This document shows, piece after piece, positions 1,527-27,269 of a stretch of 42,779 nt of DNA. The notes beneath the pieces were generated by a model that did no database searches, was not told where the DNA came from, and saw only the letters and a list, made by a program, of their open reading frames with translations. The position numbers and the translations under genes are program-made. The DNA comes from a virus (taxonomy: Duplodnaviria > Caudoviricetes): positions 1-42,779 of IMG/VR virus record IMGVR_UViG_3300011334_000550, one strand, 5' to 3'. Within the stretch, counting starts at the first letter, position 1; each line of letters opens with the position of its first letter.

Positions 1527-2426
1527 TTATTTACTGTTCTCTTTTAAGATCTTTTTAACATGATCTACTACTGTTTCCCAACTTACTGGTCCTGTTTCAT
1601 CTGCATAAAATACAGGATCAGGACAATCTAATTTGATAAATGCTTCAATGCGTTCTACTGATGAAGCTGACTTATAATCTGAAAACCATTGTGAAGCATC
1701 AATAATTTCACCTGCATCATTTTCATATGCTAGTTCATGATAAATGGGTTTATATGAAGTATTAGTGCGTTTATACACTTCATCAAAGTCTAATCCTAAC
1801 TGTTTACAGCATTTTTTTCCATCTTTTAAAATGTCAAATTTATTTCCATCAATGTAAGGAGTAAACATGTTTACATTTTCAGCTCCCCAATTTCCAATTA
1901 TGAAAGCATCAAAGTCAGCATCTCTAAAATCTTGTCTACAATCAGGATAAATAGAGTGATCACCTGCATGAATTCCCATTGCAATAACTACTTCTTGACC
2001 TATAGAACAATCATCAGTAATTGGTTTAGATGCAATTGATAAAGCAACAGCTTGAATAATGCTACTAAATATTTTGTTGCGATTAGGAACAACTGTGTCT
2101 TTCATATTTTCATCTGCATAATGTCCTTCAGGAACATCTGCTCCACCTTCAACTAATGTAGAGTTGAGTAGTTGAGATAAACCATCTAGTTTGATTACTT
2201 GATGAGTAATTTTAAATGGGTAATCAAATGTTTTACTTTCTTCATCTACAATAAAATATTCATTAATGTACTTTACTAATTCAACTGCTCTTTCCAATTC
2301 AACTTTATGTTTTTGTCCATAGTCAAATGATAAAGCTGTTACTTTATAATCATTTGCTAGTAAATGTAATAGTAAAGTACTACTATCCATTCCACCTGAT
2401 AAACTTAATACGGCTTGTTTATTCAT
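1527..2426 (-). CDS. queC: 7-cyano-7-deazaguanine synthase QueC
   Basis: SGGMDS PP-loop, FDYGQKH, VPNRN and HAGDH..YPDCR motifs. Confidence 0.93.
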   Translation of the reverse strand: MNKQAVLSLSGGMDSSTLLLHLLANDYKVTALSFDYGQKHKVELERAVELVKYINEYFIVDEESKTFDYPFKITHQVIKLDGLSQLLNSTLVEGGADVPEGHYADENMKDTVVPNRNKIFSSIIQAVALSIASKPITDDCSIGQEVVIAMGIHAGDHSIYPDCRQDFRDADFDAFIIGNWGAENVNMFTPYIDGNKFDILKDGKKCCKQLGLDFDEVYKRTNTSYKPIYHELAYENDAGEIIDASQWFSDYKSASSVERIEAFIKLDCPDPVFYADETGPVSWETVVDHVKKILKENSK

Positions 2427-3213
2427 TAATATAATTTTTAAACTTATTTATGTTAAATATAATTAGTTTTTCTTTAGCATCCAAATTTTCATTAAAGAAT
2501 TCCTCAATTTTTTCTTTAGGTTTTTCAATAGATGTGATGTTTTCATCATAAGATACTCCTTTACATCCCCACACAACTGGATTGCTTGTGTCTAGTGTTT
2601 TGATAAACTCATATCCTTTACCATAGTACTTAAATTCATCTGGAACAGCACATCCTAACAAATGATGATGAATGTGATTATCTATAATCTTTTTTTTCTT
2701 TAATTGATTGATAAAATATATTCTTCCCATCATTTTAGATATTGATATGTTTTCATGTGGAAAAAAGTCTTGATATGCTGTTGAACTGTGGTTAAATGCT
2801 ATAGCTTCTACTCCTAAATCCATATATTGACCATATAATAAAGAACCAATTTTATAGTCTGTACATTGAATTACAGCCATTAATTTAGTATTTTCAGGTA
2901 GTATTTCTTTCATATTTGTCCAACGTTTAGCATTTCGTAAACTTAAAAGAGCATCATTCCACACATCAGGTATTACAAAAATGTCTGGTTGAAGTTCATT
3001 AACAAATTCAATTAATTGTTTTTCTGTAAATGAGTCACCTTCAAATAAGCCATTGTCAGCAATGATAAATCTACCTGCTGCTTTAGCGTCTAAATAATGT
3101 TGTTTGTACTGTTCAGATTTAAACCAATATGTTGGCAAACAGAAATCATAATCATTCCATTCTTTTCCTTTGTTTAAAAAACATAATGGAAGCTCATGTG
3201 ATACTTTTATCAT
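2419..3213 (-). CDS. TGT-fold protein, probable DpdA-type 7-deazaguanine transglycosylase/insertion enzyme
   Basis: IADNGLFE, IPDV, AVIQ, HLLG and DTS motifs in TGT/DpdA order; overlaps the queC start. Confidence 0.7.
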   Translation of the reverse strand: MIKVSHELPLCFLNKGKEWNDYDFCLPTYWFKSEQYKQHYLDAKAAGRFIIADNGLFEGDSFTEKQLIEFVNELQPDIFVIPDVWNDALLSLRNAKRWTNMKEILPENTKLMAVIQCTDYKIGSLLYGQYMDLGVEAIAFNHSSTAYQDFFPHENISISKMMGRIYFINQLKKKKIIDNHIHHHLLGCAVPDEFKYYGKGYEFIKTLDTSNPVVWGCKGVSYDENITSIEKPKEKIEEFFNENLDAKEKLIIFNINKFKNYINE

Positions 3214-4556: not shown

Positions 4557-6416
4557 TTAAGCAATTTCACATCCTCCTGAAGAACAAGCCAATTCATCTT
4601 GTCTTGCTGTGTTGTCAATCATTTCAACAACTTTACTTAAGTCAATTTCATGTAGTTGTTTTACCATTTCTTCAAATTGTTCTTTTGTAATGTCTTCAAA
4701 AGGCGCTTGAGTGTATGTGTGGTCTGAATAAGGTAAAAAAGACAATGCTGTGAAGTATTCTCTGTTGTTGTACACCCATTCACCAATGTTGTCCCACTCA
4801 TCATTTTTAATAGTGACAGTAGCTGAAACGTTGTGTTGGTTTGCACCTTTTCTATAACCTGGCTTTATCCATTTTTGGTTTATTAACTTTATTCTTTCCA
4901 ATAAGTCAACAGCAGATTCATTTTTTCTTGTAATAGCACCTTCAGGTGCTTGTTGAGGTATTTTTACAATAGATTGAATTGTTGGTTTGAAAAAATCATC
5001 TTCTAACAATTCTGGATGGTAAATGTTTAAGTATGTGTATAAGGCTTCATTTTTACCTAAACGAATTCTACGAATGTAATATTCACTATGCCAAGCATGA
5101 ATGCCACTTGATGTTCCTAACACTAAAGATGTTGTTCCTGATGGTTTAACTGTAGTTACACGAGCTGCTTTGTTGATTCCTATAATGTTTGCTACTCTTT
5201 CATTTTCTTCACAAGCTACTTTAGCTGCTTCTTTCATGTTAAGTTTTAACACCGCTCCTGATGCTATGCCTGTCATTCCTATTCCTAATAGTGCTTCTTT
5301 TTCTGTTGTTTTTTTCCAAACATCTCTTAAATAGTGAAAGTCAGTGTAAGATGCTTGTAAAGTTCCTATAAATGAAGCCGCTTTTGACCTTGCGTTAAAT
5401 TCTTCTTGAGTTTCAATGTCAGAAGCATTTATTTCACAAAGATTACAAAACTGATTGGCTTTTAAGTTTATTTCAGCACATGGATTGGTACCTGCATCTT
5501 TATCATTTGTAAAGATAAAACCTGGTTCTCCACTGTTGCTTAACTCAATTTTTTTCCACAAATTTAAAAATGTTTCTTTGTCTATTTTACTGCGAAGTAA
5601 AACTGCTGAATTGTTTGCTCTGCCTCTTTGAGGATTTTCCTCCCACCAATTTCCAAATTTACAAGTCAACATGTCTTCATCATCTAGGTCAAATAAAGCA
5701 ATTAAAGCTGCTCTTCTAATTCCTCCTGACAGTACAGCATCTGCTAAGTGGCAAATGATGTCATGGCATTCTACAGATGTTAATTTTTCTCCATCATTTT
5801 TACGATCTAGTATTACTTGAACATGAGTTAAAGCTACTTTTAATGGTTCTGGTCCTGGAGCTTTTCCTCCTACAGTAATCAAATGTGCTCCTTTAGGTCT
5901 AATGTCTCTAAAGTCAAATTTAGGACAAGAATTAATAAGTCCAAAGTAAGATTTAATCAACATTCTAACTGCATCAGCCCATCCTTCAATGCTGTCTCCA
6001 ACTAAATATCTTTTAGATTTTAGTGGTTTTCTAATGTCAGGTAAATTTTCTACATGATGTGTTTGCACTGAATATCCTACTCCACAGCCTGAAAGTAACA
6101 AAAACATAATTTCAGAAAATGATCTGTGATCATCTATTGGTAAGTAAGAACAGTTAAATATTCTTGAATTGTTTATTTCAATTGGTTTACCTGCAAATTG
6201 TAAACTACGCATTGAGGGCAACACTTTTTTATCATAAACATATTTATATGCTTCTTTTATTTCCTTTTTTAAATTAGGAAATTTTTTCATGTGCATGTTT
6301 TTATTTCTGCTTACTAATTCTTCCCATGTTTCTCTTCTTTCTAACTCAGGAGAATATTTAGCGTATTTTAAATGGGTGGTGATTTCTGATAGAATCTGCG
6401 ATTCTTTGTTTAACAT
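4557..6416 (-). CDS. nrdJ: class II (adenosylcobalamin-dependent) ribonucleotide reductase
   Basis: FNCSY, GGIRRAA, TNPCAEI, CNLCE, VKPSGT and C-terminal CSSGGC; no small-subunit gene adjacent. Confidence 0.9.
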   Translation of the reverse strand: MLNKESQILSEITTHLKYAKYSPELERRETWEELVSRNKNMHMKKFPNLKKEIKEAYKYVYDKKVLPSMRSLQFAGKPIEINNSRIFNCSYLPIDDHRSFSEIMFLLLSGCGVGYSVQTHHVENLPDIRKPLKSKRYLVGDSIEGWADAVRMLIKSYFGLINSCPKFDFRDIRPKGAHLITVGGKAPGPEPLKVALTHVQVILDRKNDGEKLTSVECHDIICHLADAVLSGGIRRAALIALFDLDDEDMLTCKFGNWWEENPQRGRANNSAVLLRSKIDKETFLNLWKKIELSNSGEPGFIFTNDKDAGTNPCAEINLKANQFCNLCEINASDIETQEEFNARSKAASFIGTLQASYTDFHYLRDVWKKTTEKEALLGIGMTGIASGAVLKLNMKEAAKVACEENERVANIIGINKAARVTTVKPSGTTSLVLGTSSGIHAWHSEYYIRRIRLGKNEALYTYLNIYHPELLEDDFFKPTIQSIVKIPQQAPEGAITRKNESAVDLLERIKLINQKWIKPGYRKGANQHNVSATVTIKNDEWDNIGEWVYNNREYFTALSFLPYSDHTYTQAPFEDITKEQFEEMVKQLHEIDLSKVVEMIDNTARQDELACSSGGCEIA

Positions 6417-13306: not shown

Positions 13307-14590
13307 TTAGTGTAACAGAGCCATTGCTCCGTAGTTTTTACCTTTTGTTAGTTTAATTTTTAACTTATATTTGTTGAATACTTGCTTGATGTTTTCAAGT
13401 ATGTTTTCTTCTTGTTTATAGTCTAACAGTATAGAATCGTAAGTGTACAGCACAATTTGCGTTTCTTTACCTTTTAGTATTTTTATAATGTCCCATATTA
13501 TGCAAACATTAGTTGACGTTTCCAAATTTTGAAGCGTATAGTTAAACAACTTTTGTGGATTTATGTCTTTCAAGTCAGTGGTAAATTTGTGTCCTGAAAT
13601 TGGACATTCAACATAGCCATTTGTTGTGTAATTTTCCCACAGTTTGTTTATGTGTTCTTCAATTAGTTGAAAGTAAGGAATGTGTTGATATTTTTTGTAT
13701 ATTCCTCCATATAGTTGTTTGAACATTAAAATCTTTGCTTCATTTACTTCTATGTTTGCCTCTTTTGCAAAGTACTCATATGGTGTGACATTAGCAAAGT
13801 CATATTTTACCAATTGGGCTGCTAATGTTGGGTGATATGAGCTTATGTCTATTTCAACAAAGCAATTGTTTTTAGGAACAAATGCCTTTCTACTGCCATT
13901 GTCTTTGTTTAACGCAGCAAAGTTGACGCCATTGAAGCTGTTGGAAGGTCTTCCTGTTGTGGTGTGTAAATTATATTGAGTATAAACCACATTATTGTGC
14001 ATAAAAAACGCTTCATTGTTGATTTCAAAATGCTTATCGAAAATGTATTTGTCTGTTTTTAAACCATTTTTTTCAATTGAAAAAAACACACTTGTTAGTT
14101 TATTTAAAAACTTTACATTGTTTGGTTTTATGCAAACTTCTTTTACTTTATTGTATATAAGTTCACATTTTTCATAATGTTTTACTGTAGGAATAAGAAT
14201 GTTTACGTTTTTTAAATTTTCATGTTTTTGATAGAAGAAATAATGAGCTGAAGTTGATGGTTCTACACATTCTGGCGAATTAAAGGAAATGTCTATTAAA
14301 TTGGTTAAAGGAAAGTAATATACAAATGATTTTCTATCACGCACATATATTTCACTGTATTGTGCAAGTAAAGCGCTTATAGGCGCTTTATTCAGCGATA
14401 AAACCTCAGTATGATGAAGACATAATAAATATCCTTTATCATTGTTTAACGGTTTTAAATACAGTAAAGATATGTCATTTAATGAAGGGTGACAATTGTC
14501 ACTAAAATAAATGGGTTCAATAAAAACTCTATTATAGTCTTTATTTAATAACTCATTTAGCTGTTCATTTGTTTCTACAATGTAAAACAT
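13307..14590 (-). CDS. compact, divergent family A DNA polymerase
   Basis: TTTGRPSN, motif A EIDISSYHP, motif B AKILMFKQLYG, motif C LYTYDSILLD. Confidence 0.8.
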   Translation of the reverse strand: MFYIVETNEQLNELLNKDYNRVFIEPIYFSDNCHPSLNDISLLYLKPLNNDKGYLLCLHHTEVLSLNKAPISALLAQYSEIYVRDRKSFVYYFPLTNLIDISFNSPECVEPSTSAHYFFYQKHENLKNVNILIPTVKHYEKCELIYNKVKEVCIKPNNVKFLNKLTSVFFSIEKNGLKTDKYIFDKHFEINNEAFFMHNNVVYTQYNLHTTTGRPSNSFNGVNFAALNKDNGSRKAFVPKNNCFVEIDISSYHPTLAAQLVKYDFANVTPYEYFAKEANIEVNEAKILMFKQLYGGIYKKYQHIPYFQLIEEHINKLWENYTTNGYVECPISGHKFTTDLKDINPQKLFNYTLQNLETSTNVCIIWDIIKILKGKETQIVLYTYDSILLDYKQEENILENIKQVFNKYKLKIKLTKGKNYGAMALLH

Positions 14591-14612: not shown

Positions 14613-14644
14613 TTAAGATACTAAAAATATCTTGGAAGGCCAAG
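14613..14644 (-). promoter_or_regulatory. Bacteroidota-type -33/-7 promoter opening the replication block
   Basis: CTTG-N20-TATCTTAA upstream of polA. Confidence 0.6.
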
Positions 14645-14648
14645 TTTT

Positions 14649-14694
14649 AAAAAAAAGTAAAAGCACCCTAGATAGCGAATCTGTTGGGTGCTTT
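14649..14694 (-). terminator. intrinsic terminator-like hairpin ending the structural gene block
   Basis: AAAGCACCC...GGGTGCTTT stem followed by TACTTTTTTTT. Confidence 0.75.
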
Positions 14695-14731
14695 CATAGC
14701 CGAAGCTATAACGGTCCTAATCCGTATGTCT
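14649..14731 (-). ncRNA. candidate structured RNA antisense to 23S rRNA helix 69 and adjacent nucleotides
   Basis: UUAGGACCGUUAUAG is the perfect complement of 23S 1914-1928; C(UUCG)G hairpin; second hairpin displays UUCGCUA, complementary to 23S 1931-1937. Confidence 0.6.
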
Positions 14732-15370
14732 TTATTCTACTCCAGCATTTATTTTATCTCCTATTTTATTATATGCTTGGACTAAATTTAGTAAATTTTC
14801 ATTGTTTTCTCCATCTAATTTTTTTAATGTAACTAAATCATTTAAAATTAAAAAGAATAAATCCTCAAATTCGTCACTGTGTAGTATATCTTTAGGATAT
14901 TGTTTAGCTATATTCCATATTTTTTGTCCTAATTCTGTGCAAAATTGAACTATACCTTCTAATTTCCACTTTTCAGTAGAAAAGTCCTCCTCAGAGTTGG
15001 TCATTAATATGTTTTTAACATTAAATTTTCTATATTGTAAATATTCTGTTTTTAATTTTTCTAACTCATTTAATACTAATGGAGGCAATTCTTTAGGTAA
15101 GAAAGTTGCTTGAACCATTCCAAATGGTACTTCAATTTCTTTTTTACTGCCTAATAATTTTACTTTGTATGTTTTCTTCTTGTTGTCAATGTCAATAATA
15201 GTTCCAGCACCGTGTTTAATTACTGCTACATTAGAACCAATGTCTATACCTTTTGAAGCATCATTTGGATCAAAATTTTCTATAGAATTTAATAAATCAT
15301 CTAAATAATCTTCTGAAATTATTTTATGAATTTCTTCTTTAATAAGTTGTTTTAACTGTGATTTTTTCAT
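14732..15370 (-). CDS. putative internal head protein with SH3/KOW-like segment (start reassigned to ATG 15370, 212 aa)
   Basis: MKKSQLKQLIKEEIHKIISE leader after an A-rich spacer; IGSNVAVIKHGAGTIIDI; the longer called ORF overlaps the upstream gene. Confidence 0.75.
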   Translation of the reverse strand: MKKSQLKQLIKEEIHKIISEDYLDDLLNSIENFDPNDASKGIDIGSNVAVIKHGAGTIIDIDNKKKTYKVKLLGSKKEIEVPFGMVQATFLPKELPPLVLNELEKLKTEYLQYRKFNVKNILMTNSEEDFSTEKWKLEGIVQFCTELGQKIWNIAKQYPKDILHSDEFEDLFFLILNDLVTLKKLDGENNENLLNLVQAYNKIGDKINAGVE

Positions 15371-15401
15371 TTTTATTATTTTGCAAAATTTAGTGTGTCT
15401 T

Positions 15402-16292
15402 TTAATATCCTCCTCCACCTGACATTCCTCCACCTGTTGATGGTAGTGTGTTTGAAGTAGAAGATGGTTTTGAAGTGTCTTTAAATGATGGAGATGAGTA
15501 AGAAAATACATTAATAGGAGACAAATAAGCATGAGGTTCTAAAACGTGAGTTGCTCCAGCCATGTATCCTTTGTCAGGATGAATGTGATAAAATCCTATG
15601 TACATTTTATTGTCTTGAGTAGTTTTTAATTCATTTCCTTTAGTGTATAAATTGGACGCTTCAGGATATTTATAGTATTTAGTAAAATCCATTTTTAAAA
15701 ATTCTGCTAAATTTTGAATTCTTAATTTATTAGAAATTCTTTCAACAACATTTTGATTGTTTTTAGCAACTTGTTCTCTGTTACCTTTAAGTGTCCATGT
15801 TAAAGTAAAAGGTTGATACAATTGCCAAAGAATTGATGAATCTTTTTTTACTAGTTTATCGTATGTATCTTTATTTATTTCTAAGTAAATAGTTTGGTTT
15901 GTTTTTTTACAAAAATATCTTCTCATTCCTCCATTTGTGTAGTCTAAAGAGTTAGGGGGATTTGGGGATGATGATGGAAGATAAATTATTAAGTTAACAT
16001 CTATGTTTTTTAAATTTATATAATTAGATATTTCTGTTGATGCTTCAGATAAATTAAATTCAACTAAATTATTTTTTTCTAAAATAACATCTTGTCCTTC
16101 ACCTGCTGGTTGAGGAATTAGTAAAATATTAGGTTTATCAGAAGGTGACTTTCCAGTAAATACTTCTCCATTTGAAATTTTATAATAGTATCCTATGTAT
16201 AGTGTTTTATCTGTGGAAAGAACATATATGTCACTTGGTGGATTTCCATTTGTGTATAAATTTGTTTTAATTTGTGATTTTGGATAATACAT
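15402..16292 (-). CDS. hypothetical protein, probably baseplate-associated, with a duplicated NLYTxG domain
   Basis: Follows the hub gene; NLYTNG...YIGYY and NLYTKG...YIGFY repeat. Confidence 0.65.
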   Translation of the reverse strand: MYYPKSQIKTNLYTNGNPPSDIYVLSTDKTLYIGYYYKISNGEVFTGKSPSDKPNILLIPQPAGEGQDVILEKNNLVEFNLSEASTEISNYINLKNIDVNLIIYLPSSSPNPPNSLDYTNGGMRRYFCKKTNQTIYLEINKDTYDKLVKKDSSILWQLYQPFTLTWTLKGNREQVAKNNQNVVERISNKLRIQNLAEFLKMDFTKYYKYPEASNLYTKGNELKTTQDNKMYIGFYHIHPDKGYMAGATHVLEPHAYLSPINVFSYSSPSFKDTSKPSSTSNTLPSTGGGMSGGGGY

Positions 16293-26437: not shown

Positions 26438-26452
26438 TTTAAGTGAGTTCTT
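26416..26452 (-). terminator. intrinsic terminator after the endonuclease gene
   Basis: GAACTCAC/GTGGGTTT stem (with G-U pairs) followed by C and T9. Confidence 0.55.
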
Positions 26453-27269
26453 GTTTAAGTGTTTCTATTATTTGTTGTGGGTTATTGTTAATGTCTGTTT
26501 CCCAAAATCTAAGTAATTTAAAACCGTTGTCTTTAGCCCATTGGTTTTTTTGTTTGTCACGTTTAATATTCTTTTCTTGAGTTTTACATATTGGACCATT
26601 AGGATATTTAAGAGGATTACAATGATAAAAATCACCATCTACTTCAATCAACATATTATATTTAGGTAAATAAAAATCATAAAATGCTTTTATAGGTTTA
26701 GTATAATATGAATGGATATTTTCAATATTTTGTTCAAGTAATATATTTTGGAATGTTATTTCTAATTTGGAAGTATGTATTTTATCTTCTTTTATGATTC
26801 GTTTCATTGCTGAATCGCTCATTTTTAATTTAGTTTTTTCTGATTGTATTCTGCCTACTCCAAATCCTTTAGGTTTTGGTTTGGGTACACCTAAAGCTCC
26901 TTTAGATATTTTTTTACCTTGTTCTACCCAATCTTTATTTTTAATAGCATCTATTATATAATCATATTCACCTGAAGCAAATTTTGCTTTACGTGTTGCA
27001 ATAATTTTAGCTACACGTTTGGGGTTTTTAGGATCTCCAAAATGTCCTTCTTTTCGAGTATTATGTCCAACTATAAATTTATAAAAATCCCCATATTCAG
27101 GAGCATATTTGGTTTTATTACCACACCCACACTTACATAATGGATTTATTCCATTATATTTTACTTGAATAAGATATTCAAGAAATCTTAGTTTATGATA
27201 AAAAGAAGTATGTTTACTTAACTTTTGTTGTTTATCGGTTTCATAATTACATAGTTGACATTTAAGCAT
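26439..27269 (-). mobile_element. free-standing putative homing endonuclease (Zn-finger/NUMOD-like N-terminus, DUF559/Vsr-like nuclease domain)
   Basis: CQLC..H..H, CKCGC, SEKTKLKMS, SKLE, YDFYLP...IEVDGDFYH, RDKQK...GFKLLRFWE; inserted between the tube and chaperone genes. Confidence 0.75.

Follow-up and report, generated by a model that had tools for sequence, protein, structure and literature searches.

The window analyzed here is a linear phage fragment of 42.8 kb (42,779 nt; 31.5% G+C) that is estimated to be about 26% complete and carries its main genes on the minus strand. It encodes a T4-type capsid protein, a prohead protease, a sheath protein, PhoH, gp32, a RecA-like protein, an exonuclease, and a helicase, with a ribonucleotide reductase and QueC as further genes. 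The ribonucleotide reductase has B12-dependent-type domains (4557-6416), and QueC with its adjoining ORF (1527-3213, minus strand) suggests 7-deazaguanine DNA modification. A DUF559-type endonuclease ORF is inserted in the tail block (26439-27269, minus strand). Because the capsid protein is closest to that of Flavobacterium phage immuto (56.5% identity, the best match among 50,697 phage records), we infer that the host belongs to the Bacteroidota.

A gap of 141 nt separates the last gene of the structural block from the first gene of the replication block. From the letters of the window, an earlier sequence-only reading had proposed that this gap holds a structured RNA with two parts complementary to helix 69 of 23S rRNA and the nucleotides next to it, and the sequence, coordinates, and strand of this element are as that reading gave them (Table 1). 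The accessory ORF ahead of the element has no PHROG match, and a longer call of it has no Pfam match; this mechanical call (14732-15532, minus strand) overlaps the upstream gene by 131 nt, and the true start is probably at 15367. The 427-aa ORF on the other side has no relative in Pfam, PHROG, or PDB. The promoter-like motif ahead of it is also found in relatives without the element and is, therefore, treated as a separate feature.

Table 1. Features at and around the element in the window
Feature	Coordinates	Strand	Description
Whole element	14649..14731	-	
5' leader	14721..14731	-	Retained in close relatives under any upstream gene; ACGG predicted to pair with CCGU of segment 1
Segment 1	14711..14720	-	Complementary to 23S 1919-1928, which comprises the 3' strand of helix 69 and the nucleotides that follow; first 8 nt almost invariant in the family
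Hairpin 1	14696..14710 (C(UUCG)G hairpin, 14709-14696)	-	UUCG loop in this copy; differs between family members, although it is a degenerate antisense of 23S 1904-1918
Hairpin 2	14660..14694	-	Covarying terminator-type stem that presents segment 2
Segment 2	14671..14679	-	Apex of hairpin 2; complement of 23S 1929-1937, with CGCUA(C/U) as the core in the family
U-rich tail	14649..14662 (U-run, 14656-14649)	-	Putative intrinsic termination site and RNA 3' end
Accessory ORF, about 211 aa	14732..15367	-	Stop codon at 14734-14732, 11 nt ahead of segment 1; swapped or absent in relatives
Promoter-like motif	14615..14643	-	Lies before the next gene block; putative function
427-aa ORF of unknown family	13307..14590	-	First gene of the block running to gp32, RecA-like protein, exonuclease, helicase, ribonucleotide reductase, and QueC

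The 15-mer at 14706-14720 matches the E. coli 23S gene exactly, and its extension to 22 nt has two mismatches to Bacteroidota 23S, both as first described. E. coli and four Bacteroidota share an identical target in their 23S genes, and among the sampled bacteria it hardly varies; one planctomycete and two archaea have a different one. We take the 15-mer target to be 1914-1928 in E. coli numbering, as placed by landmarks; the 10-mer target begins at position 1911 of an E. coli 23S record of 2,892 nt. A lone 15-mer is weak evidence, as the sequence-only reading had itself warned, and 2 of 60 simulated windows contained a match to 23S of at least 15 nt. The two segments stand in permuted order relative to the target, so a single continuous duplex with 23S cannot form, and separate helices would be required.

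The predicted fold of the element is better than that of shuffled sequences (z -3.3; 1 of 200 shuffles as good). The C(UUCG)G hairpin proposed from the sequence holds, but the free toehold of about 10 nt beside it does not, as CCGU is predicted to pair upstream and leave a 7-nt loop. Similarly, a second hairpin does carry the complement of 23S 1929-1937, although its predicted apex is UCGCU (5 nt) rather than UUCGCUA. The RNA polarity antisense to 23S also holds, while the UUCG loop that had served as an argument for it is not typical of the family, only 5 of 60 representatives having C(UUCG)G. Segment 2 is predicted to be mostly unpaired (mean probability 0.89-0.92 over 5 nt) and segment 1 partly so (0.14-0.66). 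For naked RNA, with the cost of unfolding ignored, segment 1 has a duplex energy of -16.1 kcal/mol, segment 2 one of -13.5, and the 22-nt extension one of -30.7, and in a scan of naked duplexes the target was ahead of the best unrelated window by just 3 kcal/mol. The layout is that of an intrinsic terminator, with a GC-containing hairpin and then a U-run, 3' of a gene on the same strand; a simple terminator scan of the window did not flag hairpin 2. The element lies outside Rfam 15, in agreement with the first impression that it was no described family; the Rfam search of the window gave three weak matches with E up to 5, all of them away from 14649-14731.

The sequence-only reading had made its proposal depend on homologues in related phages, and pattern searches of IMG/VR and metagenomes did reveal a family of hundreds with variable stems. 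A two-segment pattern matched 120 loci in 14 of the 64 parts of IMG/VR, which corresponds to approximately 590 overall; 109 of the 120 were distinct, and all except three of these looked real. With a looser pattern, about 2,100 metagenome stretches were found, and 87 of 114 distinct sampled matches passed a hairpin test. Subtype A, to which the window belongs, consists of hairpin 1, hairpin 2, and a U-run, and in subtype B a 3' pseudoknot, both sides of which vary together by eye, takes the place of the U-run. Seven loci (L008, L026, L033, L080, L082, L117, and L859) were assigned to subtype B, several with segment 1 extended 5' to match 1929-1933. Three others (L123, L191, and L231) have segment 1 and the helix 69 extension followed by a different nested hairpin and a U-run, without segment 2.

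The carriers are many large lake and sea phages, with one copy each. Of 120 bacterial or archaeal matches sampled from GTDB genomes, 32 were ordinary 23S genes and a few were variant 23S; the others were chance matches, apart from a single copy that looked true, carried by a 15-kb contig of a Paludibacter MAG. With at most one true copy in this sample, the element is essentially phage-specific. Four actinobacterial MAGs (L290, L315, L358, and L372) have 23S genes that give way to non-rRNA sequence a few bases past the target, probably at introns near 1931-1933. In INPHARED, blastn with four element variants identified a 735-kb uncultured phage (LR756501/LR756503) as the sole carrier; matches in Yoloswag and SCTP-2 were judged chance on inspection. 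Phages immuto, Mel-JY01, and RM378 gave no match to the covariance model, and LR756508 and LR756511 gave weak partial matches only. Close relatives of the window were fetched with the downstream 427-aa protein as the query, a choice blind to the element, and 6 of 12 carry it behind differing upstream genes; one relative (L252) was dropped for lack of an upstream region, and another (L243) was dropped as a row because it is probably the same phage as the window. A further relative (L245, upstream of position 297) keeps the first leader bases without the rest of the element, which looks like loss by deletion. Among related contigs, mostly fragments, five of 50 gave strong matches, as did one of four near-complete capsid relatives. 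The element is thus accessory in its phages.

The sequence-only reading had also suggested testing whether the stems covary while the antisense segments stay invariant, and this is the pattern observed. In a 36-sequence alignment, all 10 pairs of hairpin 2 show two-sided changes, with 108 such cells compared to 45.6 in shuffles (0 of 500 as high), and its covariation exceeds every slid control. The structure used for this count was set by hand, a choice that favours it over the slid controls; RNAalifold on a MAFFT alignment recovered only 4 pairs, with stem registers shifting, hence the hand-set structure. Hairpin 1 is looser (62% paired) because its register shifts. As the initial search had fixed both segments, each was then freed in turn. 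Once segment 2 was free, no 7-mer outside T-runs was commoner than TCGCTAC, which occurred in 17 of 110 distinct matches. When the 3' half of segment 1 was freed, the exact 8-mer was present in 37 of 44 matches that bore the hairpin, four had one G-U-compatible change, and three were unrelated; with the 5' half free, the exact segment was present in 29 of 35. The first half-free set for segment 1 included 23 earlier loci by hand, nine of which were unconfirmed as matches of that scan. The starts of the two segments lie 36-57 nt apart across the family. The segments do not diverge like their flanks, as they might have under the first proposal's own doubts: in 60 representatives, fixed bases are confined to the segments that match the target, and the rest turns over.

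The family-fixed parts are two segments complementary to 23S 1921-1928 and 1930-1936, in permuted order, and bases beyond those that were searched for also follow the target. In an independent metagenome sample, G stands opposite C1920 in 40 of 43 elements (9 of 27 chance matches), U opposite A1936 in 42 of 43 (9 of 27), and a pyrimidine opposite G1929 in 38 of 43 (17 of 27). Among 49 elements of the viral set, 44 have C opposite G1930, even though this base is set against an A within the hairpin in 27; at this position, two of the scans had admitted C or T only. For the 16 nt that follow segment 1, which were never searched for, the three best-pairing of 1,461 windows across Bacteroidota 16S and 23S begin at 23S 1907, 1904, and 1910, and the 27 chance matches show no such peak at helix 69 for this stretch. 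Part of this antisense signal could be self-pairing, since the complement of a hairpin is itself a hairpin, but a 5-mer complementary to the helix 69 loop is present in 18 of 60 representatives (1.7 expected); the representatives are related, so that position counts are not independent trials. The chance of two matches to adjacent targets is roughly estimated at 1e-5. Judging from these comparisons of sequence, we regard the match to 23S as something other than chance.

Variation within the segments is less telling. Variants at positions 6-8 of segment 1 are G-U-compatible in 5 of 5 cases, yet these are also the sole transitions possible there, which makes this a weak test, and mismatching variants occur at positions 1, 3, 5, 9, and 10. 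An archaeal or eukaryote-type version with the hairpin was found in 0 of 119 pattern matches. The planctomycete-type ninth base occurs in about 15 of 25 matches, all from one subtype-B pseudoknot clade, and the next base in this clade does not follow planctomycete 23S. Separately, one viral contig (L141:293-321) has a contiguous, non-permuted 29-nt antisense piece of the same 23S region, 96.6% identical to E. coli 23S, near a degenerate tRNA-like stretch; it is possibly another family or the source of the element.

The reading that we favour, with a little more belief than doubt, is that a single-copy phage 3'-end RNA pairs with helix 69 and the bases that follow (23S 1919-1937) on free or immature 50S subunits and so blocks joining of the 30S. 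The element would be made as the terminator-ended tail of whichever mRNA precedes it and would act in trans, probably once processed. Segment 1 would begin its pairing at 1925-1928 and then invade the 3' strand of helix 69, the loop of hairpin 2 would take 1929-1937, and hairpin 1 could lengthen the pairing into the helix 69 loop. A clamp on the 50S that prevents joining is proposed because the target region is exposed only off the 70S. The clamped subunit would leave the translating pool and be exposed to a nuclease cut just after 1942, with host shut-off and a supply of nucleotides as the possible outcome; this last step is the least certain. One study describes free or exposed subunits as substrates for decay and an RNase E cut after 1942 as the start of 23S decay (PMC4931109). 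According to one review, MazF-mt6 cleaves helix/loop 70 in the 50S and not in the 70S (PMC5408214), and, according to another, a PNA against helix 69 inhibits growth of E. coli (Kulik 2017, as cited in PMC7038079).

Blanket inactivation of the 50S is costly to a phage, which needs ribosomes. A more specific version, which we hold to be rather unlikely as it stands, is that large aquatic phages carry a natural antisense RNA aimed at the ribosome itself, which opens helix 69/70 of free 50S subunits and positions the RNase E-type nuclease of the host at 1942, so that idle ribosomes are turned into nucleotides for the phage ribonucleotide reductase. Small RNAs can direct RNase E to cut a few bases downstream of a duplex. 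The predicted pairing ends at 1937, 5 nt ahead of the RNase E cut, and the element follows a ribonucleotide reductase gene in one lineage; together these favour harvest over protection of the subunit, not strongly.

Where the element sits bears on whether it acts on its own transcript or away from it. Segment 1 starts 3-40 nt past a same-strand stop codon in 37 of 49 representatives, and the upstream ORF is on the strand of the element in 64 of 72, after three loci (L012, L029, and L112) judged chance by eye had been dropped. The element is usually terminator-ended, no promoter motif is consistently found upstream, and most copies have no promoter of their own. A late-promoter-like motif follows the element in 16 of 37 cases and is present in the 60 nt before it in 8 of 37. 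The missing promoter would suit a cis-acting tether equally well, and the position and strand also speak for one. In this reading, the element stays on its mRNA and keeps hold of a 50S, either one that has just left the stop codon close by or one already free, so that the same phage message can use it again; plant-virus 3' elements that bind the large subunit are a precedent. We nevertheless think this unlikely. The upstream genes are unrelated (nrdA in 11 of 60, most of the others without a Pfam family), the element is not at the terminator of the window phage's major capsid gene, and any pairing with helix 69 would need to be reversed for the subunits to join. In addition, there is one copy per genome: the covariance model matched 33 of 43 records, themselves chosen for pattern matches, with a weak second match in one, although this model (R1) misses most of the pseudoknot subtype. 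Single-copy records include complete genomes of 163-360 kb and even the 735-kb record, and the window has one copy. The tether specific to late structural mRNA that the sequence-only reading had suggested is weakened by the same unrelated upstream genes. For a single mobile copy attached to differing transcripts, a trans-acting RNA is a better fit than a gene-specific signal. No bipartite mRNA target was found in the window or in genome G011. Nor was there an intergenic match to the 3' tail of 16S of at least 11 nt in the window, G011, or G065. Only 5-9% of the sequence words were present in seven RNA runs, the assembled contigs of four RNA runs did not cover it, and a homologue was found on one 252-nt contig in one of four RNA libraries, which could be DNA; contigs of this kind cannot show RNA ends.

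The same pairing could instead preserve ribosomes by covering the nuclease-sensitive face of the free 50S against starvation decay or against defence RNases that cut helix/loop 70, a role that we consider improbable. The patchy presence of the element among relatives would fit, as counter-defence genes often show such a distribution. The target also lies next to two cut sites, that of RNase E after 1942 and that of MazF in helix/loop 70 (PMC4931109; PMC5408214). However, the pairing stops at 1937 and leaves 1938-1943 uncovered, and a bound 50S would be unable to translate until released.

Slightly less probable still is that no ribosome is contacted at present and that the element is a terminator with a conserved protein-binding or structural signal, perhaps derived from a captured scrap of antisense 23S. 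The degenerate antisense extension could reflect such ancestry, the viral contig with the contiguous 29-nt piece might represent a scrap of this kind, and the G-U and host-covariation tests are not decisive. Yet the restriction of fixed bases to segments that match adjacent target bases, and the low estimate for two such matches by chance, are not what this explanation predicts, and generic terminator signals would be multi-copy.

The sequence-only reading had also raised the possibility of a guide for a dedicated phage enzyme. G1929 is indeed flanked by the two antisense segments, and a nuclease or modifying enzyme might be brought to helix 69/70 in this way, but we consider this very unlikely: the segments lie in separate elements and in permuted order, not nested as in the pocket of an H/ACA-type guide, there is no conserved neighbour, and no protein family was present in 4 of 4 carriers and 0 of 4 non-carriers, a small sample in which distant homologues may escape. 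Three of the 4 carriers and none of the 4 non-carriers encode PHROG 624 (L869:316-789), which is probably a coincidence. A phage bS21 is encoded by 6 of 21 carriers and by 1 of 9 non-carriers as we sorted them (7 of 30 records in all), with no strict link to the element. A site acting as DNA, either a target or decoy for an I-CeuI-type (LAGLIDADG) homing endonuclease or an attachment site for integration into the 23S gene, deserves almost no credence and is largely refuted by the permuted, split layout: the plus strand of the window does have 15 nt of 23S sequence that overlap the I-CeuI site, but the halves are swapped with about 30 variable bases between them, the fixed core is only 8 + 6 nt, and the stems covary and end in a U-run.

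If the pairing is real, an RNA of 80 nt gives phages control of host ribosomes without any protein, at a site common to E. coli and the Bacteroidota. Such a finding would be relevant to the start of 23S decay and to the ways in which large phages shut off starved hosts or feed on them. In Rfam and in our full-text literature searches, subscription papers aside, we found no natural RNA, whether from a phage or from a host, described as pairing with the core of bacterial 23S at which the subunits join. The motif was not found in four supplements of Fremin 2023 (PMC10690425), although the IMG/VR-based viral catalogue of that study, which extends beyond these supplements, could hold the element unannotated.

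Several known systems share some of these properties. Bacterial small RNAs derived from 3' UTRs, such as CpxQ and MicL, base-pair with mRNAs. Like them, the element shares the terminator of an mRNA, needs no promoter of its own, and has a short exposed seed that is conserved ahead of this terminator; unlike theirs, its fixed bases match 23S rRNA, and a second seed lies in the terminator loop. Loop-presenting antisense RNAs (CopA/CopT, RNA I/RNA II, and OxyS-fhlA) similarly place recognition bases in hairpin loops and make a two-point contact, but their targets are plasmid or messenger RNAs, whereas the proposed target here is host rRNA in trans. The TURBS of caliciviruses and the 3' CITEs of plant viruses, including the T-shaped structure of TCV, are ribosome-binding viral elements that are eukaryotic, cis-acting, and tied to a gene. 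They resemble the element in being viral, in lying close to a stop codon or 3' end, and in touching rRNA or a ribosomal subunit, a contact that is only proposed for the element, and we know of none that pairs with helix 69. Closer to hand are the PeSLs, terminator-promoter cassettes that occur in sets in each genome of T4-like phages; they too are stem-loops with a promoter-like motif behind them, at sites of accessory-gene turnover, and the main text of the paper that describes them does not contain the words rRNA, 23S, or ribosome (PMC4122927). A promoter-like motif does follow the element in its relatives, but it did not score as sigma-70. Since the element is single-copy and has fixed anti-23S segments, PeSLs explain only its terminator-promoter layout. 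The nearest parallel in target is the PNA against helix 69, for which the inhibition of growth shows that this helix can be reached (Kulik 2017, as cited in the review PMC7038079). That molecule is man-made, and the phage element would be its natural counterpart.
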